A stretch of DNA of 56,325 bases from a virus. Lineage: Duplodnaviria > Caudoviricetes. Under the pieces are notes generated by a model, which ran no database searches, had not been told where the DNA came from, and was given only the letters and a program-made list of their open reading frames with translations. The DNA is taken from the IMG/VR virus record IMGVR_UViG_3300042868_007474, positions 1-56,325 of that record. One strand, given 5' to 3'. This document shows, piece after piece, positions 19,630-48,967 of the stretch; position 1 is the first letter of the stretch; every line of letters begins with the position of its first letter. The translations under genes were made by a program, and so were the position numbers.

Positions 19630-19907
19630 GCCCGAGCGGGCGACCGAGCGAGCCGAGGCGACCGACCTCGGCCTTCGGCTCTCCGCACCTAGCAAGCGGA
19701 GCGAGCCCCGTGCATAGGACTGTGCGTGGTGAACGCCCGTTCACGCCCACCCCCGCCGACCCGACCCGAGGCGAGGGCGTAGCCCGAGCCCGACCCGTGA
19801 CCCCGAAAAACCGACCCCCTGTTTTTCCAGACCACTCCCAGCCGACCCCCTGCATAGGATTGCAGGACGGTGAACGCCTGTTCACTACGCTCCTCCCGCT
19901 CGGACGG

Positions 19908-19996
19908 CTCTGGAAGCCCGCCCTCTGGCGACCCGTGGCTAACCTCTGGCAAGCCACGCAAGGGCTCTGGCGACCCTCTGGCGACCTCTGGCGACC
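19908..19996 (+). repeat. CTCTGG(CGACC) direct repeats
   Basis: Six copies at 19908, 19923, 19944, 19965, 19976, 19986. Confidence 0.7.
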
Positions 19997-20144
19997 TGTC
20001 CCTGCCTCACCCTCGGACGGCGTAAACGCCCCGCCCAGCGGGGCTTAAAACTATTTTGAAAATAAAACAAAAATGTCCTTGTGTGTTTCGGCGGTCTCTG
20101 ATTGTGTGTCGGTGTTCCCACTAACAACTAACAAAAATAAAAAT

Positions 20145-20444
20145 ATGACCACCACCGACCTCGCCACCCTTTCCGCCCGCAACCTCCTCGCCGATGCCTT
20201 CGGTGCGAACGGAGGCCATGTCGGCTACCTTGTGGACGAACTCAACCGCCTCGTCCGCAACGCCCCCATCGGGCAGGAGCGGGCGATTGTCGCCCGTGGC
20301 GTGGCGGGCATCCGCTACGACCGCTACGACCCCCTGCTGGGTCTCCGCTATAACGATGCCTTCTGGACGGCGGTGGACGACCTCTGCTGGATGGAGGAGG
20401 CCAACGCCGAGGTGGTCTCCACCTTCTACTCGGAGGAGGAGTAA
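20145..20444 (+). CDS. Array hypothetical protein
   Basis: MTTTDLATLS; own promoter upstream. Confidence 0.7.
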   Translation: MTTTDLATLSARNLLADAFGANGGHVGYLVDELNRLVRNAPIGQERAIVARGVAGIRYDRYDPLLGLRYNDAFWTAVDDLCWMEEANAEVVSTFYSEEE

Positions 20445-20618
20445 AACTCCGAGCCCGAGCCGAGAGGTTCGGGTTTCGTTTTGCTCCCGCCTAGCAAACG
20501 GAGCGACCCGAGCGGACGGCTGGTCGCTAGGCCGCACACACGCCGAAAGTTTTTTAAAATAGTTGTTGTAATTTTCGGGACGGGTGTCAGTCTCGGAGAT
20601 GCACCAACCGCAACACCC

Positions 20619-20852
20619 ATGACCTCCCTCGCCCTCGACTCCCTCCTCGCTGACCTCGCCAAGGCTCAGAACGCCGTGGAGAACGCCATGCACACCGCCA
20701 CGAAGTTGGAGCAAGCCGATTGGTGGATGGAGGGTGGCAAGATGGTAGTCGGTCGCCACGCCAAGGCCGCTCGCACCCGCCTTGCCAAGGCTCGCCGTGA
20801 GCGTGACCGCCTCACCCGCAGGGTGGACGACCTCAAGGCACGGATGGGCTGA
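20619..20852 (+). CDS. Array hypothetical protein
   Basis: MTSLALDS; promoter upstream, hairpins downstream. Confidence 0.7.
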   Translation: MTSLALDSLLADLAKAQNAVENAMHTATKLEQADWWMEGGKMVVGRHAKAARTRLAKARRERDRLTRRVDDLKARMG

Positions 20853-20993
20853 CCGCCCCCCGAGGGGGCTCATCCGAGAGGATGGGCTTTTTCGGCGACC
20901 CCGTTGCTAGGTAGCATGGTGACGAAAATAATTTAAAAATGTTCTTGTGCTTCGGGCGGGTTGTGCTACTGTGTCTTTGTTCCCACTACACCA

Positions 20994-21128
20994 ATGCTCG
21001 CCAAACACTACACCGCCCTCGTCAAGTTCAATGAAACCGCCTCGGTCATCCGCTCCGTCAAAGAGATGTTGAAGGCCGACAAAGCCCGCACCCGCAAGAT
21101 GTGGGCTGACCGCAAGGCGGGCAAGTAA
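20994..21128 (+). CDS. Array micro-protein (44 aa, not in ORF track)
   Basis: MLAKHYTALVKFNETASVIRSVKEMLKADKARTRKMWADRKAGK; own promoter. Confidence 0.65.
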   Translation: MLAKHYTALVKFNETASVIRSVKEMLKADKARTRKMWADRKAGK

Positions 21129-21225
21129 GCCCGCCCGACCTTCGTCACCCCGTCCGAAAATAATTGAAAATAAATCTTGTAATCCAAAAACATTCTGTCA
21201 CTCTGTAATAGTTCCCACTACACCA

Positions 21226-21393
21226 ATGACCCACCAAGAAACCGTCCGTCACCTCCGCCTCGCCCACGCCCGCCATATGGCGACCTTCGACCGCTATGCC
21301 AAAGCGGGCAACGCCTCCGAGGCAAAGTATTGGCTCGGGCGAGCCGCCGAGGCTCACCAGAAACTGCTCGACCTCGGAGAGGTGGCTATCTAA
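21226..21393 (+). CDS. Array micro-protein (55 aa, not in ORF track)
   Basis: MTHQETVRHLRLAHARH...; shares leader GTTCCCACTACACCA with 20994; hairpin at 21410-21425. Confidence 0.65.
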   Translation: MTHQETVRHLRLAHARHMATFDRYAKAGNASEAKYWLGRAAEAHQKLLDLGEVAI

Positions 21394-21517
21394 CGCCACC
21401 CGAGGCAACGCCCCCGAAAGGGGGCTTCGGCTTTGCCGTTTGCTAGGTGTGGGCTACGAAAGATTTCTGAAAATAGTTCTATCTTTTTTTGGAGGGGTGT
21501 GGTATAGTGTATGAGTA

Positions 21518-21766
21518 ATGAAAAACCTCATCTCCATCGCACCGCTCACCATCATCCGCAAGTCCGCCAGCGGACTCGCTGTCGAGGTCGTCACCGCTCA
21601 AGTCGAGGGCATGATGTGCCTTCGCCGAAACTTCGGCATCTGCGGGAAGTGGCTTCCCCTCTCGCAGGTGGTCGTAAAAGACCGCAAGGTGGTCGCCGTC
21701 TCGGGCTGGCTGGTCAAGGCCAAGAAACTCGACCTCCTGCCCGAGGGTGAGGTCGGGGCTTGGTAA
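21518..21766 (+). CDS. Array hypothetical protein
   Basis: 82 aa with WLPLSQV motif; ATG directly after TATAGT. Confidence 0.7.
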   Translation: MKNLISIAPLTIIRKSASGLAVEVVTAQVEGMMCLRRNFGICGKWLPLSQVVVKDRKVVAVSGWLVKAKKLDLLPEGEVGAW

Positions 21767-21905
21767 GCCACCGCCTCGGGGTCTCACGACCTCGGGGCTT
21801 TTTCCTGTCGGTTTTCTAGGCTAAGATATTTTAGAAAAAACAAAAATACTTCTCGACATTTCGTCCGACCTCGCCATTGTCATAGATGCACCAACCGCAA
21901 CACCA

Positions 21906-22097
21906 ATGAACAAGCCCAGCAAACTCCTCCTCACCAACGCCCCCCGAGCCCTCGCCCTTGAGGTCAAGATGGCAAAGGTTCGGGTCAAGCAACTCAAGGA
22001 ACGCATCAAACAAAGCAAGCGAGATGAAGCCCGAGCCAAGGTCGAACTCCTCGGGGCTGAGTCTGTCCTCGCAAAACTCCTCGCACGGGTTGCGTAA
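21906..22097 (+). CDS. Array hypothetical protein
   Basis: 63 aa, basic coiled coil. Confidence 0.65.
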   Translation: MNKPSKLLLTNAPRALALEVKMAKVRVKQLKERIKQSKRDEARAKVELLGAESVLAKLLARVA

Positions 22098-22229
22098 GCG
22101 ACAAGCCCTTGCCTCGGGGTCAGCCGACCTCGGGGCTTCGGCTTCGCCGTTTGCTAGGTCTTGGTATCGCAAAGAAAATAGAAAATAGTTCTTGTATTTT
22201 TCTTCGGCCTGTTCTAATGTATTGGAGTT

Positions 22230-22424
22230 ATGAAAAACACCACCACGCAGGAAGTCGTCACCGAAATGTCCCTCAAGGATGCCCAAGGCATCGCCAAGTT
22301 CTTGGCGGGGCGAGCCGAGGTCGAAAAGACCGAGGAAGCCCGCAACGCCGTCGCCCTCTGGGAGATGGAGGTCGCTCGGCTGTCGTCCGAACTTGACAAC
22401 CTTCGGAGCGGGCTGGCGGGCTAA
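22230..22424 (+). CDS. Array hypothetical protein
   Basis: 64 aa; own promoter and terminator. Confidence 0.65.
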   Translation: MKNTTTQEVVTEMSLKDAQGIAKFLAGRAEVEKTEEARNAVALWEMEVARLSSELDNLRSGLAG

Positions 22425-22554
22425 CGCCCCCCCGCCTCGGATGGAACAGCCCCTCACGGGGCTTTTTTGTAGCACAGACCTAGCAAAGATAATTGCGTGT
22501 TGGGTGAAAATATATCTCGACACGGGGCGACCATTGTGCAGGATAGTGGATGTT

Positions 22555-22824
22555 ATGACTACCACCGCCTTCGACCACATCATCCCCTTCAACTCCCGTA
22601 TGCTCGACCTCGCCCTCGCCCGTATGCGATATGACAGCGAGCCCACCGAGGCCAACCGAGCCCGCCGAACGGGTGCGGAGCAATCGGCCTTTGATGCCCT
22701 CCGTGTCGCCCGTCCGCACATCCACCCCGACACCTTCCTTGCCCTCCTCGCCCTCATCCCCGCCGTCACGGGGTCGGTCAATCCGAACGGCATCCGTGTC
22801 GTCCCCCGCCAGCGGACGGCGTGA
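22555..22824 (+). CDS. Array hypothetical protein
   Basis: MTTTAFDH, near-leaderless start. Confidence 0.65.
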   Translation: MTTTAFDHIIPFNSRMLDLALARMRYDSEPTEANRARRTGAEQSAFDALRVARPHIHPDTFLALLALIPAVTGSVNPNGIRVVPRQRTA

Positions 22825-22926
22825 GGGTCGGGGGTCGCCGAGACCGCTCGGCGGCTTCGCCGTTTGCTAGGCGGCGTAAACGCTCGCAGACGCTCATAAA
22901 AGTTTTCAGCGTGAGTCCTTTGCTAC

Positions 22927-22956
22927 ATTGTAGCATAAAAAACGGGTCTCCGTCAA
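22927..22956 (-). promoter_or_regulatory. Antisense sigma70-type promoter (one of eight)
   Basis: TTGACG-18-TACAAT with extended TG. Confidence 0.65.
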
Positions 22957-23061
22957 TACTTAATTTCATTTTTTATTTCAAAAATAAATCACAATTGTCT
23001 TGTGCTTCTCGGATAGTTCGCCATTGTAGTTCTTGTCACCCGACACCCAACACCAAAACAT

Positions 23062-23295
23062 ATGCACCCCGCCCCCCAGAACTGCACCGCCCCCGAACTG
23101 TTCCTCTACTCCGCCACTCGGACTTACCTCCGCTTGGAAGCCCGCACGGACGGGCGGATGTCGATGAGCAAGGCCGCTCGCCCCAACGCCCTCCTCCTCT
23201 TGGAGGTTCACGCAGGGGTCAAACTCCCCAAGCGTGTCAAGGCGACCGAACTGCTCGCCAAGTTTGAGGAAGCCTTCGGCAAGTATCTCCCGTAA
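23062..23295 (+). CDS. Array hypothetical protein
   Basis: 77 aa; own promoter and terminator. Confidence 0.7.
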   Translation: MHPAPQNCTAPELFLYSATRTYLRLEARTDGRMSMSKAARPNALLLLEVHAGVKLPKRVKATELLAKFEEAFGKYLP

Positions 23296-23392
23296 GGGAG
23301 GACGGCCAATGGTAACAGCCCCCTGTCGGGGGCTTTGTCATTTGTAAAAATCATTTTTACAATTTTTACAATTAGAGTGCCTACGAAACTAA

Positions 23393-23410
23393 ATGACGGG
23401 TATCGGTCAT
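23393..23410. promoter_or_regulatory. AYGAC-N8-GTCRT palindrome (type example)
   Basis: ATGAC-GGGTATCG-GTCAT; similar sites lie upstream of many array promoters. Confidence 0.7.
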
Positions 23411-23469
23411 AAACTTTTTTAAAAAAAGTGCTTGTGATTTTTCGAACCTTCGTCCATAGTGATGGAGTA

Positions 23470-23727
23470 ATGAATACCGAACCTTCTATGACCCCGAAAG
23501 AAATCATCACGGACTGCGAAAACAAGTGTCGCTTCCTCAACGGCCAGATTGCTGGCATCGACAAGGCTCTCCGCCTCTTGGCTAACGCTCTCTCGCCCGA
23601 AGGGCTGGCGATGGTCGCCTCTCTGGAAGCGACTCGCAAGACCCTTGACGACCAAGCGACCGCTCTCTCTGTCAAGCGACAGGACGCAGAAATCGCCCTT
23701 TACACGACCGATTTGAGCAAGGAGTAA
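23470..23727 (+). CDS. Array hypothetical protein
   Basis: MNTEPSMTPK, coiled coil. Confidence 0.65.
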   Translation: MNTEPSMTPKEIITDCENKCRFLNGQIAGIDKALRLLANALSPEGLAMVASLEATRKTLDDQATALSVKRQDAEIALYTTDLSKE

Positions 23728-23891
23728 GCAAGGTCGGGCGGGGCTAACGCCCTGCCCTTTTTTGCGACCCGTTTCCTAGGCGGAATTATTTCACTTTGAC
23801 GAAAGATTTTTCTTTCTTTTTTCCGACACCCGTGCTATTGTCCTCTTGTCGCCGTGAGCGACACAAAACCAAAACCAAACCAAACAAAACC

Positions 23892-24074
23892 ATGACCCCC
23901 GCCACCACCGCCATCGTCTCGCAGTTCAACGCCCTCGCCGAGAAGCACCCCAAGGAAGCGACCGCCATCCGCCTCCGCAACCACCTCCTCGCCCCCAAGG
24001 CGAACGCCGAGGAGGCCGTCCTCAAAGGCTTCTGGCTGATGATGGTCGCCGAACTCCGACAGGCGGTCAAGTAA
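23892..24074 (+). CDS. Array protein, paralog of 19142..19324
   Basis: See 19142. Confidence 0.75.
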   Translation: MTPATTAIVSQFNALAEKHPKEATAIRLRNHLLAPKANAEEAVLKGFWLMMVAELRQAVK

Positions 24075-24245
24075 GCCCCCACGGGTCAAGGCAAGGCTCG
24101 CCCCACGGGGCGGGCTTTTTTGTTGCCCGAGGTTCTCGACCTCGACCACCCCGTTTGCTAGGCCGCACGGGTAGCAAAAATAATTAAAATAGTTCTCGAC
24201 CTTTTTGGAAACATACCCCATAGTCATCTTATCGAAACAACCCTT

Positions 24246-24491
24246 ATGTCCTCCTCCTCCCTCTTCATCTCCCTCGGCGACCTGCTCGACCCCAACTGCC
24301 CCGTGGCAAAGGTCGCCCGAGAAAACGCCCGCCTCCACGCCGAGGAGGTCGCCCGAGTGACCGCCCTTGTCGCCGAGCGGGAAGCCTCCAAAGCCCGCTG
24401 GGCGGCGATGAGCAAGGAGGACAAGGAGGAAGCGATGCAGGATTGGGAATGGTCTATGATGCCCGAGGGCGAGGACTACCCCGAGGACTGA
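24246..24491 (+). CDS. Array hypothetical protein
   Basis: 81 aa with acidic C-terminus. Confidence 0.7.
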   Translation: MSSSSLFISLGDLLDPNCPVAKVARENARLHAEEVARVTALVAEREASKARWAAMSKEDKEEAMQDWEWSMMPEGEDYPED

Positions 24492-24632
24492 CCTCCTCGC
24501 CGAGCGGGAAGCCCGTAGTGAACGGGCGTTCACCGCCCTGCCGCCTACGAAACATAAAGACAGGTATCGCTCATAAAAAAAGTTAAAATAGTTCTCGCAA
24601 TTTTCTAAACGATGGTCATAGTCATAGATGTT

Positions 24633-24848
24633 ATGAACCTCATCCTCCTCACTACCTCCCTCCGCCACCCCGACCTGTCGTCTTACCGCCAGCCCGATGG
24701 CTCGACCCACTACCTCGCCGATGCTTACAGCACGGGCTGGTATCGAGCCCAAGGCGAGCAGTTGGAGGCGACTGTTAAGACCCTCCTCTCGGAGGTCGAA
24801 GCCAAGGACAAGGAAATCGAACGCCTCACCGCCCTCCTCGCCCGATAA
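24633..24848 (+). CDS. Array hypothetical protein
   Basis: MNLILLTTS; own promoter and terminator. Confidence 0.7.
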   Translation: MNLILLTTSLRHPDLSSYRQPDGSTHYLADAYSTGWYRAQGEQLEATVKTLLSEVEAKDKEIERLTALLAR

Positions 24849-25011
24849 GGGCGAAGGTCGGAACGCCCCCGAGGTCGGGGGCTTTTTGTTGCTCGGTTTG
24901 CTAGGTCTGCCTCCCGCAAAGATTTTAAAAATAGTTCTGGTATTTTCGGGCTGGGTGTGCTATTGTATCTTTGCAATCAGCAACCCAATCCAACCCAAAT
25001 CCAACGCCACT

Positions 25012-25287
25012 ATGTTCCCCCGCAATACCGACCCCACCCGTGAAGAAATGGTCGCCTTCCTTAAGGCAACCCCTCTGCATGACCATCGTGAGACCGCTGA
25101 CAGCATTGAGTTAGCCATCCACGCCTTCGCCACGGAAAACTACGATGGGCAGTTCTCCAACCTCTACATCGCCCTCTCCGCCTCGCCCGTCAGTTCTTAT
25201 GAGAACATTGACAGGGATTGGCTGGAAGCAAACGATGCGACCGCCTGTATGATGTTTGACGACCTTGAAACCGCCTTCGCTGGCTAA
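25012..25287 (+). CDS. Array hypothetical protein
   Basis: MFPRNTDPTREEM...YDGQFSNLYIALSASP. Confidence 0.7.
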   Translation: MFPRNTDPTREEMVAFLKATPLHDHRETADSIELAIHAFATENYDGQFSNLYIALSASPVSSYENIDRDWLEANDATACMMFDDLETAFAG

Positions 25288-25333
25288 CCCTCACGCCCCC
25301 CGCAAGGGGGGCAACCCCTCACCCTCCAAAAAA

Positions 25334-25447
25334 ATGTTCGACCCTCACCAAATGGATTACATAGTCGGGATGTTCTACCTCGGGCTTGCCGCCGCTGGCA
25401 TCTGCCTTGTTGGCTGGCTCTGCCTCCGCATCTTCGGCGACCTCTGA
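25334..25447 (+). CDS. Small membrane peptide
   Basis: 37 aa with one hydrophobic helix. Confidence 0.5.
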   Translation: MFDPHQMDYIVGMFYLGLAAAGICLVGWLCLRIFGDL

Positions 25448-25629
25448 CCGCCTCGGACGGGCTCGGGCTCGGGCGGTTGCTCGGGCTCGGGCTTTGCCTT
25501 GCGACCCAAAGCAACGGCGTTTCCCATACCTATGCTGTATGCTAGGTCTGGGTAGTGAACGGATGTTCAGTAGTAAGATTTTTAAAATAGTTCTTGTTTT
25601 TTTTCGTGGGTCGGGTATGGTGGTGGAGT

Positions 25630-26043
25630 ATGAAACACATCCCCGCCACCGACCTCGCCTCCGACACCTCCAACGCCCCCGCCCCCGCCCTCTGGGCTCT
25701 CGGGCGTGAGTTGTTCCCCCGCCCCGCCTCCGCCAAGTCCCACAAGGCCAAGGTCGAGGCCATCCTCGCCTCCCCCTCCGACCTCCGCCGTCTCGCCGCC
25801 GAGTCGGGCTGGAAGGTTCTCTCGGCTTTCGCCGATAAGGTCGCCAAGACCGCCAATTGGAACGACTATTGCGACCGCCACTCCACGCATTGGGGCTATA
25901 ACCGCAAGATGTTCTGGTCTGACAAGATGGTTTCCTGTGTCGAGCGGGCTCTCGCCTCGGTCAAGGGTTTCGAGCCCTCCGAGGTCGCCGAGTGGCAGTC
26001 CGAGTGCGACCATTGGGATGCCCTCCGCAAGGGCGAAATCTAA
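25630..26043 (+). CDS. Array hypothetical protein
   Basis: MKHIPATD, 137 aa. Confidence 0.7.
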   Translation: MKHIPATDLASDTSNAPAPALWALGRELFPRPASAKSHKAKVEAILASPSDLRRLAAESGWKVLSAFADKVAKTANWNDYCDRHSTHWGYNRKMFWSDKMVSCVERALASVKGFEPSEVAEWQSECDHWDALRKGEI

Positions 26044-26422
26044 TCCCCCCGCCACAAGGCAACCAGCCCCCGACAAGGGGGCTTTTTTGTGCCTCCGTTA
26101 TTTCAGCCCTCCGAGACGATGGCTATCGAGAAAGCCACGGGGGTCTGCTTGCCCTCTGGCTTGGCATCTGGCGGGCTTTGGCTACGGAGACGGGTCAATG
26201 GTCGGGCTTGGCTACGCAAGCCCTCTACGGGGCTTTAAATCGTGCGGAGATTGGACGGCCTTAACCTCCGCAAATCTGCGTAGATTGCACAGACCTAGCA
26301 AACGCACCGCCCGCTCCGCTCCGCTGGTTGCTAGGTGGCTGGTTCGCAAAAGATTTTAAAAATAGTTCTCGCAATTTTCGCAATCCCTGTCATAGTCTTT
26401 TTATTGTTCTTATAAAAACCAC

Positions 26423-26528
26423 GGAGACGGGACGGGTGTCCTGCTGGAAAGCCCGCAAGGGCGGGGGGCTTAACAGCCCTTCGGGTGAAATCCCAAGGTA
26501 GAGGGTTCGACTCCCTCCGTCTCCTCCA
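26423..26528 (+). ncRNA. Non-canonical tRNA-like RNA in its own promoter unit
   Basis: Acceptor GGAGACG/CGTCTCC + U + CCA; T-arm GAGGG-TTCGACT-CCCTC; aberrant multi-hairpin middle. Confidence 0.7.
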
Positions 26529-26590
26529 TTTTAAAATAATTAAAAATAGTTCTCGACTTTTTTCCGACCCGTGTCATAGTCATCTATGTT

Positions 26591-26725: not shown

Positions 26726-26867
26726 GGCACACGCCCCCGAGGTCGGGGGCTTCTTGCTACCCAAGACCTACGGAACTTAATGGCAGATGCCAATCATAAA
26801 ATAATTAAAATAGTTCTCGACTTATTCCTGCCCCGTGGCATAGTCATAGATGCACCAACCAAAACAT

Positions 26868-41135: not shown

Positions 41136-41177
41136 ATACATACAGTATGCATAACCTTTCGGATAATGCAAGAAGAA

Positions 41178-41693: not shown

Positions 41694-41757
41694 TTCATTT
41701 TCATCTTTACATTAAATCAGATTTGTGCATACTGTATCTTCTAACCCAAACAACCAA

Positions 41758-42045: not shown

Positions 42046-42092
42046 CTTTCCAACCCAAATAACCATACTAACTAAATCCAACCAACACTACT

Positions 42093-42359
42093 ATGAGCAA
42101 TATGTCTTACTGCCGTTTCGAAAATACCGTCTCCGACTTGGAGGACTGCGTTGAGTCGTGGAGCGATGGTGTTTCGTCCAAGGACGAAGCCCGAGCCCGC
42201 CAGCGACTTGTCGAGGTCGCCGAGGAAGTCCTCTCCCTCTACCGCTCTGACAGGGAGATGGTGGACAGCCTTGAACTCAATGAGGAGGGCAAGTCTTACG
42301 AGGCTGACGATGACGACACGGAGGACGAGGATAACGAGTCCTCCTCGGACTCCGAGTAA
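42093..42359 (+). CDS. Phage protein with MSNMSYCRFENT N-terminus and acidic tail
   Basis: N-terminal motif recalled from many phage early proteins, not searched. Confidence 0.75.
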   Translation: MSNMSYCRFENTVSDLEDCVESWSDGVSSKDEARARQRLVEVAEEVLSLYRSDREMVDSLELNEEGKSYEADDDDTEDEDNESSSDSE

Positions 42360-42614
42360 GGTTTAGCCCCTCACGGGGCTTTTCCTTTGGTTTGGTTGTT
42401 AGGTATCTAACAGACCCCAAAGTTGCCCCCACGGCGACCCATTTGGAATATTGTAGCACATTCGCAAGCCGTTGTAAAGCAAAAAGATAAGAGTTTATTC
42501 TTTGATTGTTTTACGAAAAGATAACTTTGTGCTTGCGGAAACTTAAATCGTATGCATACTTGTAAGAGTCCAATCAAGGACAACCAACCAAAACTAAACC
42601 AAACCAAAATACAT

Positions 42615-43490
42615 ATGACCACGAACCTCACCACCACCACCGCCTCGGAAGCCATTGAGCGTCAGACTGAAAAGTTTGACTACACGGTTTCCCAAGTCCC
42701 GTTCCACCTCCCGAACGGCTCGCAGACCCGTTTTCTCGCTAATGTGCGGGATGACAACGGCGAAGTCCTCGGGTGCGTCTCCGACCGCTACGAAGTCCTC
42801 CAAAACTCCGATATGCTCGGGGCTTCCGAAGACCTCTTCAAGGCCGAGGGCTTCTCTAACTTCAAGCGTAAGACCGTTTGCACGAACGGCGGGGCTCGCA
42901 TCCGAGCCATTTATGACTTCCCCGACCACGGCTTCAAACTGTCGAACGGGAACGACCTCACCTTCCGCTTGAAGGTTCAGAACTCCTTTGACGGCTCGCT
43001 CCGTGCCTCGTTCCAAGTCGGTCTCGTTCGCCTCGTTTGCACGAACGGCCTTGCCCTCCCCGTTGCGGCTGTTGGTATGTCCCGCAAGCACACCCAGCAC
43101 CTCGACCCGAACGGTCTCCGTGAGGCGTTCGCCCGCTCCATTAACGCCTTCAAGGAGTCCGCTCCCCTCTTCAATCGGATGATTGAGACCCGCTTGACGC
43201 AGGAGGAGGGCAACAGCATCCTGCTGAACTTCGAAAAGTCCAAGGTTATGAGCGAGCGGATGCGTGAGGGCATACAAGCGGTTTGGGAGCGTCCGACTTA
43301 CGCCGAGGACAGCACCCGCAACCTGTTCAACCTCTACAACGCCACGACCCAGCACCTTACCCATTCGGTTGAGGGCAAGCGGTTCGAACTTGCCGAGCGT
43401 GTGAACACGGGAGTCCTCAACTCCATCTCCAAGGCGGTGAAGCGAAACAACCTCGCCTCGCTGATGGTTGCCAACCTCGGGGATAACTAA
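42615..43490 (+). CDS. DUF932/DUF945 family protein (TIGR03299-like)
   Basis: VLGCVSDRYEVLQN, NGGAR, NSFDGS, RLVCTNG, FNLYNATTQ. Confidence 0.85.
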   Translation: MTTNLTTTTASEAIERQTEKFDYTVSQVPFHLPNGSQTRFLANVRDDNGEVLGCVSDRYEVLQNSDMLGASEDLFKAEGFSNFKRKTVCTNGGARIRAIYDFPDHGFKLSNGNDLTFRLKVQNSFDGSLRASFQVGLVRLVCTNGLALPVAAVGMSRKHTQHLDPNGLREAFARSINAFKESAPLFNRMIETRLTQEEGNSILLNFEKSKVMSERMREGIQAVWERPTYAEDSTRNLFNLYNATTQHLTHSVEGKRFELAERVNTGVLNSISKAVKRNNLASLMVANLGDN

Positions 43491-43586
43491 TCCCCCGAGC
43501 GGGCGGGTCGAACAGGGTGGGGGCTAACGCCCCCGCCCTTTCTTTGTTTGCAAGCATTGACAAACCTGCTATGCTGTCCCCCTCAT

Positions 43587-43922
43587 ATGGTATCCAAAAA
43601 AGATTATTTTAAAGTTGACCTTTTCCCCGATGGTATGCATTGTCCAAAATGCAGGGGAGTGCATTTCCACCCCAAGGCAACGGTTTTACCAAACCTAGTA
43701 TCCGTAGTGCCAGACCCAAAGGGTAAGGACGGGAAAGTTAGCCTGTGGGTGGCTCGGTCTGAGTGCCTAACAACAGGGTGCAACGGCTTTGTGGATTGGA
43801 CATTCCATCCCGACTACTGCAACGGAGACCGCCTTGGAAACCCTTATAGAGCCATTGTAGAGTGGGGTTCTAACCCACTTGGGCTGGAAGCGTTCAAGGA
43901 CTTCCCTCGGAGCAATAGTTAA
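43587..43922 (+). CDS. Zn-ribbon-like protein
   Basis: CPKC...CLTTGC. Confidence 0.6.
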   Translation: MVSKKDYFKVDLFPDGMHCPKCRGVHFHPKATVLPNLVSVVPDPKGKDGKVSLWVARSECLTTGCNGFVDWTFHPDYCNGDRLGNPYRAIVEWGSNPLGLEAFKDFPRSNS

Positions 43923-43977
43923 GTTTTTTAGATTTGATGCTTGTATTTCTCAGAGGTTCGTGCATACTGTATCTACT

Positions 43978-44145
43978 ATGAAACACGAAATGGAATACAT
44001 CGCAACCATCCAAGTCCTCTCTGGCTCTATGGCTGGACAGATGCTTGAAATCGAAACGCTGGACAAGTGGGCTATTGGCTCTCACCACCACATCGCCGAG
44101 CAGACCTTTGTCGTCCTCGGCCTTGAAGAAAATCCGCTGGAATGA
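43978..44145 (+). CDS. Array micro-protein
   Basis: MKHEMEY; TGCATACTGTAT promoter. Confidence 0.65.
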   Translation: MKHEMEYIATIQVLSGSMAGQMLEIETLDKWAIGSHHHIAEQTFVVLGLEENPLE

Positions 44146-44203
44146 AAATAAGACTTGTAATCTAAACCAAAATTTGCATACTGTATCTTCTCCAACCAAT
44201 ACC

Positions 44204-44449
44204 ATGAAAAACACTAACTACAAAATCCAGAACGACACCCTTGATAAGATTAAGCCCGCCCTTGATAAGGCAAAGATTAAGTGGGTGCTTGTCTTTGACG
44301 AGGATGTGCTTGACCGCCTTGACGGCGACCCCCGCCTTGCAAAACTCACGCCCGAAATCATGGAGTCCATCAAGGACGACACCGTTGATGCCCTTATGGA
44401 AGCGTGGGCTGATTGCATCGACTCTGCCATTGACAACAACATCCGATAA
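44204..44449 (+). CDS. Array acidic protein (similar to 45464 and 48349)
   Basis: MESIKDDTVDAL versus MMEIKEAVLDAL. Confidence 0.7.
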   Translation: MKNTNYKIQNDTLDKIKPALDKAKIKWVLVFDEDVLDRLDGDPRLAKLTPEIMESIKDDTVDALMEAWADCIDSAIDNNIR

Positions 44450-44466
44450 AGCATAATACTACTACT

Positions 44467-44850
44467 ATGGGACTCGACCAATACGCTTACTCGGTTAGCA
44501 AGGCAGACCGACCCCTGCTTGACTCGCAGGAATACTATGACGGCGAAGCCGTCATTGAGTCCCAAGAGGAACTTGCTTATTGGAGAAAACACGCCGACCT
44601 TAACGGATGGATGACCAACCTCTACCACAGCAAGGGTGGAGAAGGGAGTTTTAATGGAGAAATTCTTGAGTTAAATGAGGACGACCTCAACTCCCTGCAA
44701 GAAGCCGTCAAGGAAGGTCTTGAGACTGCTACGGGGTTTTTCTGGGGTGTGTCTGACGAGCGACACGACAACGAGACCGTGGCTTTCATCAAGAAGGCAC
44801 TACGAGAGGTGAAGAAGGGTAATGTAGTTTATTATTGTTGCTCTTGGTAA
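44467..44850 (+). CDS. Conserved phage/MGE protein (MGLDQY...YWRKH...GFFWG...YYCCSW)
   Basis: Recognisable widespread family of unknown function. Confidence 0.8.
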   Translation: MGLDQYAYSVSKADRPLLDSQEYYDGEAVIESQEELAYWRKHADLNGWMTNLYHSKGGEGSFNGEILELNEDDLNSLQEAVKEGLETATGFFWGVSDERHDNETVAFIKKALREVKKGNVVYYCCSW

Positions 44851-44967
44851 AACAATGCCCCGCAGGTGCGGGGCTTCTGTTTGCTCTGGTTGTTAGGTAT
44901 GTATATGATTGAAAGAAATCATAAAATCTTCTTGCAATTTTTATAAACTTATGAATACTGTATGTCT

Positions 44968-45270
44968 ATGACTAAACCCAAGAAAGCCACCAAGTCCGTT
45001 GCCTGTCCCCACCTCGCTGTCGCTTATGAAGGCGGTGGCAATTGGGGTTGGGCATACTACAACACCGCTCAGAAGGCCGTAGAGGTCGCCGAATGGATTA
45101 AGGCGGGGAATAACACCAAGTTCGCTTGCAAGGGTCGTGTGGAGGCTGACAGCGACAAGGGAACGGTCATTAAGGACGGCTCGACCCTCTGGTGCATCCA
45201 CTTTCACTATGACAACACCAATCGCCCTGCATACATCCAGAGCGTTCCAAATATTCGCACTTTGTGGTAA
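44968..45270 (+). CDS. Array hypothetical protein
   Basis: MTKPKKAT. Confidence 0.7.
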   Translation: MTKPKKATKSVACPHLAVAYEGGGNWGWAYYNTAQKAVEVAEWIKAGNNTKFACKGRVEADSDKGTVIKDGSTLWCIHFHYDNTNRPAYIQSVPNIRTLW

Positions 45271-45311
45271 TAAATTCTTTACAAGCCCAACCACTTGTGC
45301 ATACTGTATCT

Positions 45312-45425
45312 ATGACTAACAAGAATACCAAGCGAGCCAGCGGTGGCTCTTTCTGGAAGGTCGAAAGCAAAGCCGACCTCCTTAAGCGACCTGCAAAAAA
45401 GTCTAAAAAAGTTCTTGCAAAATAA
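45312..45425 (+). CDS. Basic micro-protein (37 aa, not in ORF track)
   Basis: MTNKNTKRASGGSFWKVESKADLLKRPAKKSKKVLAK after TGCATACTGTAT. Confidence 0.5.
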   Translation: MTNKNTKRASGGSFWKVESKADLLKRPAKKSKKVLAK

Positions 45426-45463
45426 ACCAACTTCCACATACTAATCAATCCACCACCAATACT

Positions 45464-45697
45464 ATGAATACCTCCCCCAAAAACAAAGCCCTCCTCGAAA
45501 TGTCCCGCCTTGCGGCTCGGCACGGCATCCTCTACCTCGTCATTGAAGACGAACTGATTGAGACTTACGCCGAAGACGCTGAACTCAAACTTGACTCCGT
45601 GACTATGATGGAGATTAAGGAAGCCGTCCTTGATGCCCTCCAGCAGGATGTTGAAGGACACATTGAGACCGCCGTAGATGATATGGTCGGTAACTAA
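45464..45697 (+). CDS. Array acidic protein
   Basis: 77 aa, similar to 44204. Confidence 0.7.
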   Translation: MNTSPKNKALLEMSRLAARHGILYLVIEDELIETYAEDAELKLDSVTMMEIKEAVLDALQQDVEGHIETAVDDMVGN

Positions 45698-45723
45698 TTC
45701 TAACCCAAACCACAAATACAAAA

Positions 45724-45933
45724 ATGAAGCAATACCTCATCACAAAGACTATCACCATCTCGTTTGAATGCGAGGCTAAGAATGAAAAGGACGCTATCAA
45801 GCAGTTCAATTCTGACTTTGAAGATATGTTTAACAATACCGACTCTCAGTTGGACGAAGACCAGCCCGAGAATGTCTATGTAGCCAAGGAGAATGGGGAA
45901 TATGTCCCTGTTGCCGAAGCCAAGGATGCTTGA
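45724..45933 (+). CDS. DpnD/PcfM-like small protein
   Basis: MKQYLITKTITISFECEAKNEKDA pattern. Confidence 0.6.
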   Translation: MKQYLITKTITISFECEAKNEKDAIKQFNSDFEDMFNNTDSQLDEDQPENVYVAKENGEYVPVAEAKDA

Positions 45934-46049
45934 ACAGAACGCCCCCTCACGGGGGCTTCTTCTTGGAATGATTGTTAGGCACTTATATGATTAAAGAATT
46001 TCATAAAATGTCCTTGCAATTTGTCCGACTTCATACATACTATCAATCT

Positions 46050-46271
46050 ATGACCACTACCAAAAAGAAAGCCAAGAAGCCCGTCCTTAAAACATTCATC
46101 GTATCCGAGCAAATCTTCCTTAATTGGGAGTGCAAGGCTACTTCCGCAAAAGAAGCCCGTGAGATGTATGAATTCTACATCGCTGACGATGTTCAACTTC
46201 AAGAACTCTTGAAGGAAGCGTTAGAGAACAAGTGGGATGCTGGTGTCAATGTGGAGGAAGTCAAGGAATGA
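46050..46271 (+). CDS. Small protein, same pattern as 45724
   Basis: LKTFIVSEQIFLNWECKATSAKEA. Confidence 0.65.
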   Translation: MTTTKKKAKKPVLKTFIVSEQIFLNWECKATSAKEAREMYEFYIADDVQLQELLKEALENKWDAGVNVEEVKE

Positions 46272-46447
46272 AAGTCTACATTGCCTTCCTCTGGGGCAAC
46301 GGTAGCCCATACATTGAAGCCAAGTTGGAGAATGGGATGAAAGTCCCATTCCGAGACTTGACTACTTGGAACGCTAAGGCCAAGAAGCGAGTCAAGGAAC
46401 ACCTTGAAAGTGTCTACGGCTATAAAGAAGTTCACTTTATTACTTGA
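46268..46447 (+). CDS. Hypothetical protein
   Basis: MKVYIAFL, ATGA overlap. Confidence 0.6.
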   Translation: MKVYIAFLWGNGSPYIEAKLENGMKVPFRDLTTWNAKAKKRVKEHLESVYGYKEVHFIT

Positions 46448-46477
46448 CCATTAACAACAAACCTGCATACTGACTTT

Positions 46478-46771
46478 ATGGAACACATCATTGCAAAAAT
46501 TATGAAAATGAAGCGAGAAGACCGAGTGGCTCTCGCCCACGGCCTCCTTATGGAACTTGAAAAAGCAGAGGACATTACCTGCTGGAACTTCTGGGAGCGT
46601 CAGACTGTTAAGGAAATTGCCCTTGAAAACATCAATGGCAAGATTTCCGAAGCCGAACTGACTGGCCTCATGGGTCGTCTCAACAAGGAGTGGGATAGCC
46701 TTGCCCAACACGATTGGGAAAAGTTCTCCGACAACCTTAACAAGCATCTTAAACAAATGCGAATTAAGTAA
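46478..46771 (+). CDS. Hypothetical protein
   Basis: 97 aa; own promoter. Confidence 0.7.
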   Translation: MEHIIAKIMKMKREDRVALAHGLLMELEKAEDITCWNFWERQTVKEIALENINGKISEAELTGLMGRLNKEWDSLAQHDWEKFSDNLNKHLKQMRIK

Positions 46772-46968
46772 TGAACAACCCAATCAAGGGCAATCGAGCA
46801 AATCCAAGCGAACCAGTAAATGTTCGCCGTTTTGCCGTAAGCAGATATAAAGTATTAATTAATGAAGCAGTTGAAATGCGGAAGCAGGACAAGAAGCGAT
46901 GGGAAGTCTTGTTCTCTATGAACAAATGGCAACCACAAGATGGCACAACGCAAACCAAGAAACCATAA
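46771..46968 (+). CDS. Hypothetical protein
   Basis: 65 aa, coupled to the previous gene. Confidence 0.55.
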   Translation: MNNPIKGNRANPSEPVNVRRFAVSRYKVLINEAVEMRKQDKKRWEVLFSMNKWQPQDGTTQTKKP

Positions 46969-47155
46969 GATAGACCCAGCCAAGGTCGAAGAGGCGGCTC
47001 GGAGACTTGGACGCAGGGTGCTTGAACTAATGCTAGATGGTCTGGCTGACGATGAACTCGCAAGGGCATACGATGGTCTCCGAGATGCCTTGGTAGGTAT
47101 TCCAGACTACTCTTATACTCCACCAAAAAAGAAAGCCCCCACCCCGAAGGGGTGA
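46940..47155 (+). CDS. Hypothetical protein
   Basis: 71 aa. Confidence 0.55.
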   Translation: MAQRKPRNHKIDPAKVEEAARRLGRRVLELMLDGLADDELARAYDGLRDALVGIPDYSYTPPKKKAPTPKG

Positions 47156-47171
47156 GAGCGTCTTTAAGTTT

Positions 47172-47345
47172 TTACTTGCAATCGTATTTTTCTGCCCGCT
47201 CTTTGGCGATTTCCTCAATCTGATACCAGATTTTAGCCATTGTATCGTCATCATACTTGGCCTTGTCGTATTGACCTTGACCCCACGACCCCTTTGCCCA
47301 ATCAAGGGCGTGTAAGGCCGTGTTTCTGATTTCCTCGTTGGTCAT
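47172..47345 (-). CDS. Hypothetical protein
   Basis: MTNEEIRN. Confidence 0.6.
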   Translation of the reverse strand: MTNEEIRNTALHALDWAKGSWGQGQYDKAKYDDDTMAKIWYQIEEIAKERAEKYDCK

Positions 47346-47349
47346 CGGT

Positions 47350-47571
47350 TTAGTATTCGTGGGTTTCGTTGCCCTCGGCATCCTGCGAGTAGCAGGTGAA
47401 GTCAGAGGAGTCAGCAATCATCTTGCCGAACTTGACATTCTCCACGAACGCATTAAGATACTTCTCTTGGGCTTCCTCGAAAGAGTTAGCCACGATGCCT
47501 CGGGATTGGATGGTGATGGTTTCGTTGAAGAAGTAAGTCTTCTTCGTGTTGGTGGTGTTTTCGTTGGTCAT
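47350..47571 (-). CDS. Small protein, same pattern as 45724
   Basis: KTYFFNETITIQSRGIVANSFEEA; own promoter. Confidence 0.65.
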   Translation of the reverse strand: MTNENTTNTKKTYFFNETITIQSRGIVANSFEEAQEKYLNAFVENVKFGKMIADSSDFTCYSQDAEGNETHEY

Positions 47572-47632
47572 GGTGTTTGGGTGAGAGATACAGTATGTAT
47601 GGTTTTAGATTTTGTGCAAGACATTTGTCTGA

Positions 47633-47938
47633 TTATTTCAGATAAATCGTCTTCACTCGTTCGTAGTTTCCATTGATGCTGGTAGTAATGTCGAAAATCC
47701 TGTTATCAATAGAGCGGACTTCGAACTCTCCGCTTGCCATCTGTTTAAGGGCTTTGATAATCTTGCCTTCGTGTTCGTCAATTTCAAAGTATTCGCCCTT
47801 GCAACCGCAACGGCAGTTGTTGCCCTTGCCGATGTAGAGGTTATCCACCTTGTCAAGGGTGATGACAATCTCACCATCCCCATCAGACGAGGTGTGCTTG
47901 ATTTTGTATTCAGTTCCGAGGTTCATAGTGTTGGTCAT
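47633..47938 (-). CDS. Phage protein with YIGK..CRCGCKGEY motif
   Basis: Own TGCATACTGTAT promoter. Confidence 0.7.
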   Translation of the reverse strand: MTNTMNLGTEYKIKHTSSDGDGEIVITLDKVDNLYIGKGNNCRCGCKGEYFEIDEHEGKIIKALKQMASGEFEVRSIDNRIFDITTSINGNYERVKTIYLK

Positions 47939-47984
47939 AGAAATACAGTATGCACAGATTTTATAAAACAACAAGCATTATTTC

Positions 47985-48233
47985 TTACTTTCTTTGTCCA
48001 TTGGAGTCAAAGAGAACTTCAAAGGAAAGGTCTTCTACTTCCTTAATAGCCTCGGCAAGGGCAATGCGAGCCTCTTCGGCTCGCTTGCCAGAGCGTTCAA
48101 ACTCATAGTCAAAGGAAAGGGAAGGGTTGGTGAGTTGGAACATCACGCCGTGCTGTGCCTCACGAAATTGAGTCAATTTCCAGATAAGGTTTTTGCTGGC
48201 CTTGGCGAGTTCGGTTGCTTTATTGTTTTTCAT
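47985..48233 (-). CDS. Hypothetical protein
   Basis: MKNNKATE; own TGCATACTGTAT promoter. Confidence 0.65.
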   Translation of the reverse strand: MKNNKATELAKASKNLIWKLTQFREAQHGVMFQLTNPSLSFDYEFERSGKRAEEARIALAEAIKEVEDLSFEVLFDSNGQRK

Positions 48234-48348
48234 AGAGATACAGTATGCACGGACTTGCACTTTTTTCAAGATAAAAGATTTAATATTTTGACGGCAGATG
48301 TGCTTGACATTTCTTGTAAAACCTGCACAATACACCGTAAGCAATACT

Positions 48349-48591
48349 ATGGACAAAAAACAAACTCAAAAAGAAGCGGTCAAGCAAATTAAAAAAATCT
48401 GTAAAGAAACGGGGCTGGGGTGCTTCCTACTAACGGATGACATGACCTCGCACATACAGACCGAAAATGGGACGGCAATTTCAGAATCCCAGCGTGAAAA
48501 ACTGAAGGAGCGACTTATTGATTCTTTTAATGATATGTATTCTGACTATCTTGACGCACTTTCGCTTGACTTAGAGACAGAAGAGGAGTAG
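48349..48591 (+). CDS. Hypothetical acidic protein
   Basis: MDKKQTQK. Confidence 0.65.
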   Translation: MDKKQTQKEAVKQIKKICKETGLGCFLLTDDMTSHIQTENGTAISESQREKLKERLIDSFNDMYSDYLDALSLDLETEEE

Positions 48592-48603
48592 ACTGTATAT
48601 CGT

Positions 48604-48879
48604 ATGAAAAACAACTACTCCATCGAACAGTTCAACGCAGACCTTGAAAGCGGTGCATACACCCAACTGGGTATGTATCCCAAGTATTTTATCACTTCAG
48701 ATGGTGGCTGTCTGTCGTTTAAGTCGGCGTTGGAAAACGCCGAACTTATTCGAAATGAAATTAAGGACGGAGATTTTATGGGTTGGCGTGTTGTGGCTTG
48801 CGATATTAATTGGGAGTCGTTCCTTTATTGCGACCACTCCAATAAGCAAATTGAGTCTGCTTACGACCCCGTTGAGTAA
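48604..48879 (+). CDS. Phage protein with YP.YFITSDGG...W.VVA.DINWE..LYCDH...IESAY motif
   Basis: Pattern recalled from phage early-region proteins, not searched. Confidence 0.75.
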   Translation: MKNNYSIEQFNADLESGAYTQLGMYPKYFITSDGGCLSFKSALENAELIRNEIKDGDFMGWRVVACDINWESFLYCDHSNKQIESAYDPVE

Positions 48880-48967
48880 ACTTAAGAAGTATGCAATATT
48901 CGACTTGCATACTTCAAGTTGGTTGTTAGGTTCTTTATATAGACCCCCACGGGGGAGGGGGTGCAAA

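Follow-up and report, generated by a model that had tools for sequence, protein, structure and literature searches.

What is marked by the four-base word TAGG, which recurs from junction to junction in an array of small phage genes and is scarce elsewhere in the same genome? The question is raised by IMG/VR record IMGVR_UViG_3300042868_007474 (Duplodnaviria, Caudoviricetes), a 56,325-bp stretch of DNA, estimated to be 70% complete and analysed here over its whole length (hereafter, the window). An original prediction made from the letters alone had described about 50 copies of a TAGG-core motif placed between a terminator and the next promoter, and had proposed that they may serve as integron-like crossover, nicking or protein-loading sites. 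Our results partly support that interpretation: the junction element is genuine, the integron analogy is not supported, and protein loading is kept as the best reading, in the form of a boundary mark recognized by a putative DNA-binding factor that insulates or regulates transcription units. We put this reading forward tentatively, with somewhat less than even confidence.

The first 18.6 kb of the window (positions 1-18.6 kb) are filled by minus-strand genes, including those for the major head protein, an S49 protease, a lambda-family portal, gpA-type large and small terminase subunits and a primase-helicase. They are followed by a plus-strand array of about 66 small early genes (18870..47000, own gene calls), most of which have their own predicted promoter (UP element, -35 and -10) and many also their own hairpin terminator. 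Gene, promoter and terminator calls are our own heuristics, genes being called from third-position GC periodicity with uncertain start codons. A consensus scan finds 23 promoter-like sites (versus 8.5 +/- 2.9 in shuffles) and 52 terminator-like sites (versus 24.3 +/- 5.5), and our own promoter scan (TTGnnn-16/17-(C/T)ATAnT with at least 70% A+T upstream) gives 63 sites, 59 promoters being scored in the array. The phage is uncultured and looks lytic; the integrase model PF00589 has no match in the window record, no match among cultured phage records is returned by megablast with 10 kb and 19 kb of window DNA as queries, and the large terminase subunit (TerL) is less than 26% identical to that of any cultured phage.

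A word kept at gene junctions

The eight-base word TTGCTAGG occurs 21 times in the window (16 forward, 5 reverse) versus 1.55 +/- 1.19 expected, a number reached in 0 of 100 shuffles, and its reversed word, used as a control, is found 0 and 0 times in the record; the element is therefore genuine and non-random. All 16 predicted forward positions are exact matches, and the variants TTGTTAGG (40774, 42396, 44890, 45972, 48923) and TTGATAGG (33086, 34502, 39920) are where they were said to be. Among the eight reverse positions, 19688, 20490, 22479, 26294 and 27120 are exact reverse complements, and 28323, 29131 and 32412 read CCTAGCAT instead. The sole part shared by forward TTG(C/T/A)TAGG, reverse CCTAGCA(A/T), reverse CCTACG(G/A)AA and several (T)GCATAGG sites is TAGG, and the conserved unit is only TAGG(Y). 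Counted by this core (TAGG/CCTA), the region 19,000-47,000 holds 57 sites, 35 forward and 22 reverse, which bears out the predicted figure of about 50, although the positions listed with it numbered 32.

By our gene calls, 51 of these 57 cores are non-coding, corresponding to 5.03 per kb versus 0.34 per kb of coding DNA, so that the word is far from equally frequent inside and outside genes. Fifty-two cores fall in 45 of the 65 gene junctions (one core in 39, two in 5, three in 1 and none in 20), and the claim of about one copy per junction is roughly right. Read 5' to 3', a junction consists of the stop codon, a G+C-rich hairpin with an often weak T-run, a gap of about 7 nt followed by the motif itself, A/T-rich DNA (AAAATAGTT-like), a TTGCAA-like -35, 16 nt, a CATACT/CATAGT-like -10 and, a few bases on, the start codon. 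The mark is present in 32 of 35 junctions with a terminator versus 13 of 30 without (Fisher p = 3.4e-5), and in 39 of 50 promoter-bearing junctions; mark-free junctions mostly have a promoter directly after the stop codon, the terminator being missing. In agreement with the predicted placement between a terminator and the next promoter, TAGG lies 5-45 nt downstream of 28 of 39 terminator-like hairpins and 30-110 nt upstream of 38 of 59 promoters. The CGGC-TTC-GCCG hairpin, said to stand often 5' of the motif, is visible at 22151, 22864 and 37369 (by eye, not counted).

Typical distances can be given on both sides of the mark. The distance from the terminator stem to the T of TAGG is 16-23 nt at 17 of the 36 sites with a hairpin within 60 nt. 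On the promoter side, forward sites with a promoter within 70 nt (n=25) lie 36-38 nt (12 sites), 46-51 nt (9) or 59-62 nt (3) before the -35, the remaining one being at 41 nt, where the scan is thought to have picked the wrong hexamer; among reverse sites, 8 of 17 have the -35 50-52 nt downstream. Successive classes differ by about 11 bp and place the centre of the 9-mer near -71, -82 to -85 and -93 to -96 (computed from the -35 start, with a 16-nt spacer assumed). The motif itself is not a sigma-70 promoter, as originally stated: with TTGCTA taken as a -35, a -10 at 17-18 nt is found only as A-rich UP sequence, the reverse sites have none, and the forms of the mark in the two relatives described below (G001 and L134) have no TTG. 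A sigma-54 reading (GG-N10-GC) was also rejected, its spacing being inconsistent by eye.

Elsewhere, the word has been largely removed. The whole window contains 72 TAGG/CCTA versus 257 (Markov) and 440 (base composition) expected, the 18.6-kb left arm 9 versus 66 and 145, with both strands affected, and the right 5.6 kb 2 versus 20 and 44. To control for codon usage, synonymous codons were shuffled within genes 200 times: in nine left-arm genes sense TAGG is found 0 times versus 14.1 +/- 2.9 and CCTA 6 times versus 25.8 +/- 3.9, in the array genes CCTA is found 2 times versus 24.8 +/- 3.3 and sense TAGG 4 times versus 6.2 (not significant), and the counts of four control words (GTAG, CTAC, TAGC, GCTA) agree with expectation. 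TAGG is thus purged on both strands beyond codon usage, about 14 of the 72 sites remaining inside genes. The deficit outside junctions, together with the marks inside them, indicates a word kept at boundaries and removed elsewhere.

Two general causes of the purge were considered and rejected. Bias from very short patch repair would have touched the sister words TTGG (727 versus 748) and CTTG (928 versus 777), which are undepleted. Host composition as the cause finds no support in the genome bin G002, titled Candidatus Aquidulcis sp. (Chloroflexota, Limnocylindria), which holds the 32-kb contig of a relative (L142, primase 73% identical): TAGG is at Markov expectation in five 20-kb contigs of that bin (44-49 versus 49-57), and TTGCTAGGT is unenriched there (3 versus 16 for the reversed word). 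The bin is a weak hint to the host, as binning can misplace phage contigs.

A more specific cause would be host attack. TAGG/CCTA may be the target of a restriction or other defence system and be avoided as such, its junction copies being either regulatory sequence that cannot be removed or harmless, an explanation that we consider improbable. The window does carry the signs of what looks like extreme restriction avoidance: seven 4-bp palindromes (CCGG, CGCG, GCGC, ACGT, AGCT, GATC and GTAC, with about 220 expected each) are at zero, as are CCNGG, GGWCC, GCWGC and the asymmetric CCTGA/TCAGG (0 versus 111 expected), CGWCG is found twice, and CATG, GGCC and CTAG are reduced. The array also encodes ArdA and a Lar-like protein, and 55 of the 56 TAGG sites examined in G001 share one direction, which recalls escape from Type III enzymes; sites in the same orientation escape such enzymes, as in the case of T7 and EcoP15I. 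However, some 50 sites retained at fixed positions, in three lineages and with changed flanks, point to selection for the word and not to mere tolerance of it. Moreover, both orientations are used in the window and in L134, the purge is incomplete, unlike the true zero classes, a strong purge is confined to the lineages with the mark, and TAGG is at its Markov expectation in the five contigs mentioned above.

The zero classes themselves vary among relatives: each of loci L009-L028 and L142 has lost its own set of 4-bp palindromes. L021 lacks ten and retains CTAG at 2 counts, L012 lacks GATC and ATAT, and the phage-like contig L142 lacks nine, the five other contigs of the same bin being normal, with GATC even in excess. 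The loss of seven 4-bp palindromes and several 5-mers in the window documents, with unusual clarity, the restriction pressure that a freshwater phage is under.

Relatives and the shuffling of cassettes

Searching with the primase yielded 19 loci in IMG/VR and 27 in metagenomes, among which L009-L011 and L115-L118 cover so little of the array that they are uninformative. The mark is carried by three lineages only, the window, G001 and L134. G001 is an 80.5-kb record (83% complete, primase 92% identical) in which TTGCTAGG is absent from the locus examined and the mark reads cgRGGGTAGGY behind almost every terminator. Its array has 52 TAGG in 24.7 kb, all forward and 0 reverse, with a GGGGTAGGY core and a median spacing of 371 bp, the remaining 12.7 kb examined having 0 TAGG and 3 CCTA; at 28 of 48 sites the -35 follows after 37-39 nt, despite two unrelated sequence classes in the gap. 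In L134 (primase 87% identical), the array side has 18 sites (12 forward, 6 reverse) in 8.4 kb, compared with a single one in the remaining 9.6 kb; 13 of the 18 read (T)GCATAGG by our own count (form TGCATAGGT). The distance from the mark to the -35 is about 51-59 nt there (four sites, by eye). The positional conservation on which the original prediction had staked its case therefore holds for the TAGG core, present at the same kind of junction in two other phages, and not for the exact 8-mer.

The 5' flank is lineage-specific (TTGC, GGGG, TGCA) and TAGGY is constant; as G001 has purged CTAG and its mark avoids CTAG, the base 5' of TAGG is free. Purge and mark are both strong in the window, G001 and L134. 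Relatives with primases 72-76% identical have neither array nor motif, few terminators on the array side and only a mild TAGG deficit common to TA-containing words. Searched in IMG/VR, the window-type extended motif TTGYTAGGTNNNTATAYGA matches 83 stretches, with a single match each except one with two; nearly all being single, these matches are taken as chance, so that no other IMG/VR record has a window-type array, and the G001-type pattern is found in G001 itself only. Another 8-mer, TGGTTCGC, is present 11-16 times per locus in L019, L020, L024, L026 and L027, on both strands, mostly in coding DNA and with no shared context.

This distribution bears on two further explanations. The word could be a functionless passenger in a terminator-promoter cassette that recombination has spread and homogenised, which we regard as no more probable than a restriction target. 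Flanks uniform within a genome and different between genomes are what concerted evolution predicts, and the shuffling of cassettes is documented (see below). A passenger would nevertheless hardly leave TAGGY alone constant across lineages in which flanks, spacers and orientation have all changed, survive in a genome that purges TAGG 10-fold or more elsewhere, or stand in either orientation in the same place, at the same distance to the next element. Alternatively, the word could act in RNA, UAGG in read-through transcripts serving as a processing, pausing or termination signal behind the terminator. All 52 array sites of G001 are sense, the mark lies at a fixed distance past terminators, and sense TAGG is at zero in the nine left-arm genes; against this, antisense copies make up 22 of 57 sites in the window and 6 of 18 in L134, and CCTA is purged from sense strands equally strongly, which a signal in RNA does not predict. 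We therefore hold action at the RNA level to be quite improbable. The occurrence of the core in either orientation in two lineages (35/22 in the window, 12/6 in L134) fits a reader that acts on DNA.

Cassettes are extensively shuffled. In spite of the 92% identity of the primases, array DNA of the window and of G001 shares only two short matching stretches, and 32 of 82 array open reading frames (ORFs) have protein homologs in 42 kb of G001, in a different order. Six well-conserved cassettes shared by the two genomes were compared: in five, the DNA that can be aligned does not extend past the flanking marks of either genome, and in the sixth it continues at low identity. Window DNA is present in 24 public runs, labelled lake water or freshwater metagenome and all holding it as contigs, and cover in RNA libraries is no evidence of transcription. 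Among these contigs, variant genomes have joints in junction cassettes (22158 to 20922, 21397 to 22131, 30367 to 26074, 30464 to 33434 and 30786 to 30405), seen in contigs only, at low depth and in runs that possibly share a campaign. Joint 22158 is the last base of TTGCTAGG and joint 30405 lies 2 nt before a reverse mark, whereas others (21397, 30367, 30464, 26074) fall in terminators, in promoters or just past stop codons; the joints are thus taken as cassette-level rearrangement and not as a precise crossover point. The candidate machinery for this exchange is encoded 3' of the array, on the minus strand, by a RecE-like PD-(D/E)XK exonuclease (51554..52507; DUF3799, phrog_412 'exonuclease VIII') and a RecT-like single-strand annealing protein (52461..53354).

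Is the mark then a cut site? A nuclease with a short site, for instance a phage HNH-type nickase, could nick cassette boundaries and feed a RecE/RecT-type exchange, harmful sites within genes being purged. A specificity of 4-5 bp and a purge on both strands are typical of nuclease targets, the extreme plasticity of the array and the confinement of alignable DNA between flanking marks would follow, two of the joints touch the mark (22158, 30405), and RecE/RecT-like and HNH genes are present. Yet the joints at 21397, 30367, 30464 and 26074 fit plain homologous exchange anywhere in the cassette, some 14 of 72 TAGG are tolerated in genes whereas presumed restriction targets are at zero, a nickase offers no reason for the fixed spacing from the -35, and the HNH gene, which stands among tRNAs, resembles a homing endonuclease and has no link to TAGG. 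We judge a nickase unlikely, if less so than a restriction target.

The first proposal, an integron-like attC core or another site-specific crossover site, is largely refuted, and we give it a very slight probability. There is roughly one site per cassette, and TTGTTAGGY variants fit the core consensus GTTRRRY; however, this GTTAGGY form accounts for 8 of 72 nine-mers, the dominant GCTAGGY breaks the consensus, orientation is mixed, and the cassettes carry their own promoters and terminators. An attC-like inverted repeat or fold is likewise missing: only two junctions have an inverted motif pair (20489/20524 and 26293/26328), and single-strand DNA folds of four junction stretches are ordinary, no better than shuffles (z -0.08 to -1.92). 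Tyrosine recombinase (PF00589), serine recombinase (Pfam model) and Y1 transposase (PF01797) each have 0 matches in the window and G001 records, versus matches in 14 of 14 control genomes, in control genomes and in 6 of 14, respectively; as these records are 70% and 83% complete, an integrase gene may lie in the missing part. The same two records have 0 matches to Sigma70_r2 (controls, 10 of 14 genomes). Neither enzyme that a phage-sigma promoter or a crossover site would need was thus found in these records, which we count in favour of a protein-bound boundary mark. A search for T7-type RNA polymerase (PF00940) found 0 matches, in the controls as well, and is uninformative.

A putative boundary mark and its surroundings

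From the observed placement, spacing and purge of the word, the conservation of its core, the shuffling of cassettes and the absence of recombinase genes, we infer that a protein binds the mark, and that its binding would insulate. Each boundary would be a composite cassette made of a hairpin terminator, the TAGG mark, an A/T-rich UP element, a -35, a 16-nt spacer and a -10. TAGG(Y), together with about four lineage-specific 5' bases, would be bound by a sequence-specific factor, most likely encoded by the phage, which would sit just past an RNA polymerase stalled at the terminator and about 70, 81 or 92 bp upstream of the next start site. Insulation might then come from blocking read-through or helping to terminate it, from tuning the next early promoter, or from both. 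TAGG would have been purged genome-wide because the factor, if bound inside genes, would hinder polymerases, and the junction cassettes would double as homology patches through which a RecE/RecT-like system shuffles genes.

Two observations suggest how the factor may act. With about 8 nt for the T-run subtracted from the distance between stem and mark, the mark would lie about 11-14 bp beyond the expected release point; together with the link to terminators, this suggests a roadblock that insulates units and aids those terminators that are weak. Additionally or instead, the spacing from the promoter in helical steps is suggestive of an upstream operator. A bolder form of the proposal, which we think possible but doubtful, is that TAGG is the dedicated punctuation word of this clade and that a factor with a 4-5 bp site acts on DNA at each cassette boundary, as a roadblock or as a nickase. 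If so, the genome would have a punctuation word swept from its genes on both strands, with marks that insulate some fifty tiny units and aim cassette exchange, in an integron-like gene-shuffling array that works without an integrase.

Several points weigh against a bound boundary factor. The purge of a 4-mer is unusual for an operator and more typical of nucleases or restriction targets, and the loss of CCTGA (0 versus 111) resembles restriction avoidance. The constant spacing may be mere common descent or gene conversion of cassettes, and the distance from mark to -35 depends on lineage (37-39 nt in G001 versus about 51-59 nt in L134). Eleven promoter-bearing junctions have no mark, and six marks are in junctions without a scanned promoter, so that the mark is not required for promoter function. 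The single orientation of all 52 of 52 array sites in G001 would also fit an RNA-level or strand-specific process. Finally, a clear candidate for the reader is wanting. DNA-binding families (helix-turn-helix, ribbon-helix-helix and similar Pfam models) have no match among the 82 array ORFs, even at E up to 0.5, a search that small divergent DNA-binding proteins could escape. The sole subclade-specific conserved protein found, encoded beside the primase at 17618-18115 (-), was considered and set aside for want of a clear fold match: its model (mean pLDDT, the predicted local distance difference test, 83.7; a five-stranded sheet and three helices) has no Foldseek match at E <= 0.001 (best 0.03) and a best VIA-align Z of 6.9, within noise. 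All close relatives have this protein, although with identities of only 29-46%, and none of the distant ones does; it has an invariant C-terminal DLF that could be, as a guess, a tail like that of single-stranded DNA-binding proteins.

The matter is of some consequence, as early-gene arrays are where phages keep anti-defence and host-takeover genes, here ArdA and a Lar-like protein, and the regulation and reshuffling of such arrays are poorly understood outside T4-like phages. A boundary word of 4-5 bp, conserved across lineages and otherwise forbidden in the genome, offers a testable handle, and finding its reader would bring to light either a factor of a new kind that insulates transcription or helps terminators, or a nickase with a short site that directs recombination.

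The individual marks of the array, given by position, strand and nine-mer, are as follows. The most frequent form, TTGCTAGGT, is found on the plus strand at 20904..20912 (-35 37 nt downstream), 21440..21448 (terminator stem 19 nt upstream), 22151..22159 (where the variant-genome joint ends at 22158), 24898..24906, 26328..26336, 27586..27594, 28697..28705, 29537..29545, 33347..33355 (followed by an extended -10-like promoter at 33397), 33845..33853, 35870..35878, 37369..37377 and 41427..41435, and on the minus strand at 19687..19695, 22478..22486 and 26293..26301, the last with its inverted partner at 26328. TTGCTAGGC stands at 22864..22872, 24155..24163 and 30039..30047 (+) and at 20489..20497 and 27119..27127 (-); the inverted partner of 20489 is TCGCTAGGC at 20524..20532 (+), with a -35 38 nt downstream. 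TGCATAGGA is found at 19711..19719 and 19851..19859 (+), each followed by a GTGAAC-N4-GTTCAC box, and at 37987..37995 (-). Plus-strand marks are furthermore TTGATAGGT at 33086..33094, 34502..34510 and 39920..39928, TTGTTAGGT at 40774..40782, 42396..42404 (followed by an extended -10-like promoter at 42444) and 44890..44898, TTTCTAGGC at 21813..21821, TCGCTAGGT at 31095..31103, TACATAGGT at 35513..35521, GACATAGGT at 38784..38792 and TTGTTAGGC at 45972..45980.

Forms found on both strands are AGCATAGGT (25528..25536, minus; 32423..32431, plus), ATGCTAGGT (25539..25547, plus; 28322..28330, minus) and TACATAGGC (31666..31674, minus, with a GTGAAC-N4-GTTCAC box 9 nt before; 36700..36708, plus). 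On the minus strand only are TTCGTAGGC at 23379..23387 and 24543..24551 (the latter with a box 9 nt before), TCCGTAGGT at 26766..26774 and 30407..30415 (the latter where a variant-genome joint enters at 30405), TCCGTAGGC at 27898..27906 and 30796..30804, ATGCTAGGC at 29130..29138 and 32411..32419, TTCGTAGGT at 34879..34887, and the L134-type form TGCATAGGT at 38772..38780, again with a box 9 nt before. At 23773..23782 the mark is part of the palindrome CCTAGG and reads on both strands. Similar marks lie outside the main array: GCTCTAGGT at 15524..15532 (-), 15 nt past the minus-strand primase stop and pointing with local transcription; CCTAGG at 18566..18575, between the minus-strand left arm and the plus-strand array; TTGGTAGGT at 47090..47098 (+); and TTGTTAGGT at 48923..48931 (+), between the last plus-strand gene and the minus-strand tRNA cluster, and at 54956..54964 (+), in a stretch without a long ORF.

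Other elements share the junctions. Six GTGAAC-N4-GTTCAC palindromes (versus 0.11 expected; 19729, 19870, 24518, 25555, 31641 and 38747) each adjoin a TAGG mark, and such boxes are also present in G001; we take their GAAC-N4-GTTC core to be that of the Gram-positive type LexA box, and TGTTCACC presumably resembles the iterons of the P4 alpha protein. A second junction element, (A/C)TGAC-N9-TCATAAAA, which contains the inverted repeat ATGAC...GTCAT and is possibly an operator, lies between the TAGG mark and the UP element at 12 plus-strand sites (23395-46008; 15 matches with at most 1 mismatch versus 1.14 expected), with a counterpart in G001, TTAATTGACCGAAC...TCATAAA. Extended -10-like promoters TTTGGTATAGTGTAGCA, without a -35, are found in longer junctions upstream of the ordinary promoter (21500, 31142, 33397, 38015 and 42444; 7 matches with at most 3 mismatches versus 0.58 expected) and may form a second temporal class. 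The -10 hexamer is often a few bases 5' of the start codon and most leaders have no GGAGG (by eye, not counted); this suggests that array mRNAs are leaderless or nearly so.

Family searches of the 82 array ORFs identified ArdA, a Lar-like protein, DUF932, DUF7296, DUF3846 and an HNH endonuclease. A 392-aa ORF at 18870-20048 (+) is probably no real gene: it has no coding periodicity (GC by codon position 0.67, 0.69, 0.62) and no family match, and it shares its DNA with several small ORFs as well as with junction elements and TAGG marks. Ten tRNA genes on the minus strand lie 3' of the array, followed by the RecE-like, RecT-like and lytic transglycosylase genes; an Rfam scan of the window gives nothing above threshold except these 10 tRNAs. 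Among them sits the HNH endonuclease gene (49063-49437, +), with one of the few coding TAGG sites inside it, at 49218. A tRNA-like element at 26427-26525 (+) has an acceptor stem, a GGTTCGACTCC T-arm and a 3' CCA, without an ARAGORN call, and scores 25.2 bits on the tRNA-Sec model (family threshold 47).

Comparison with known systems

Several known systems resemble the mark in part. Like integron attC sites, it occurs once per cassette, and GTTAGGY loosely resembles the GTTRRRY core, but the window has no integrase match or attC hairpin, and it differs in mixed orientation, own promoters and a dominant variant that is off the core. Repetitive extragenic palindromic (REP) sequences and bacterial interspersed mosaic elements (BIME), with their REP-associated tyrosine transposases (RAYT), are short repeats downstream of genes, in either orientation and with a GTAG(G) head, that serve as protein-binding sites and transcript boundaries; the mark differs from them in having no palindromic body (by folds and by eye), in a Y1 transposase not found in the window record and in its setting, phage cassettes and not a bacterial chromosome. 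Class I activators such as CRP bind at -61.5, -71.5, -82.5 and -92.5, and the 9-mer centres of the window lie likewise upstream of the UP element, in steps of about a helical turn; unlike class I activator sites, the mark is asymmetric and short, and mark-free promoters are equally good by sequence. Promoters of phage polymerases or sigma factors are a further possible comparison; 22 of 57 copies of the mark in the window point against the genes, and Sigma70_r2 was not found in the record. The mark also bears some likeness to the P1 C1 operators.

The closest parallel at the level of the whole junction is offered by the promoter-early stem-loop (PeSL) cassettes of T4-like phages. According to the portions of the reports available to us, these combine a stem-loop terminator with a strong sigma-70-like promoter and A/T-rich upstream DNA, occur in hyperplastic regions of small orphan genes in which relatives differ by insertion, deletion and replacement of cassettes, and are exchanged by homologous recombination with breakpoints inside the cassettes and with no dedicated recombinase known (PMC2839356, PMC4122927). 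The window cassettes likewise pair a sigma-70-like promoter and A/T-rich upstream DNA with a predicted stem-loop, in 35 of 65 junctions, and, as far as those portions allow the comparison, its array is similarly hyperplastic, with homology that stops inside junctions and joints that lie in cassettes. In contrast with the PeSL phages, the window phage is unrelated to T4, with its lambda-type terminase and portal and a TerL less than 26% identical to those of cultured phages, and its separate TAGG word, used in both orientations, conserved across lineages and purged elsewhere, is outside the PeSL description as given in the same portions (PMC2839356, PMC4122927). By analogy, the window junction works like a PeSL cassette without being a member of that group by descent.

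For the mark alone, the comparison is with the stoperators and operators of Cluster A mycobacteriophages (L5 gp71 type). In the part of the report available to us, these are described as 13-mers present in more than twenty copies, both at promoters and within short spaces between genes, where a monomeric protein binds them and halts initiation as well as elongation; their orientation follows transcription, and reversal abolishes their function (PMC9283540). Judged against that description, the mark of the window differs in having 4-5 constant bp, in standing behind intrinsic terminators, in being reversed in 22 of 57 copies, and in the repressor and integrase not found in the window; orientation follows transcription in G001 (52/0) and is mixed in the window (35/22) and in L134 (12/6). 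The mark is nevertheless, like the stoperators, short, asymmetric, repeated and intergenic, and by analogy with the part of their description cited here they are the nearest known case of repeated asymmetric protein sites in the intergenic spaces of a phage.

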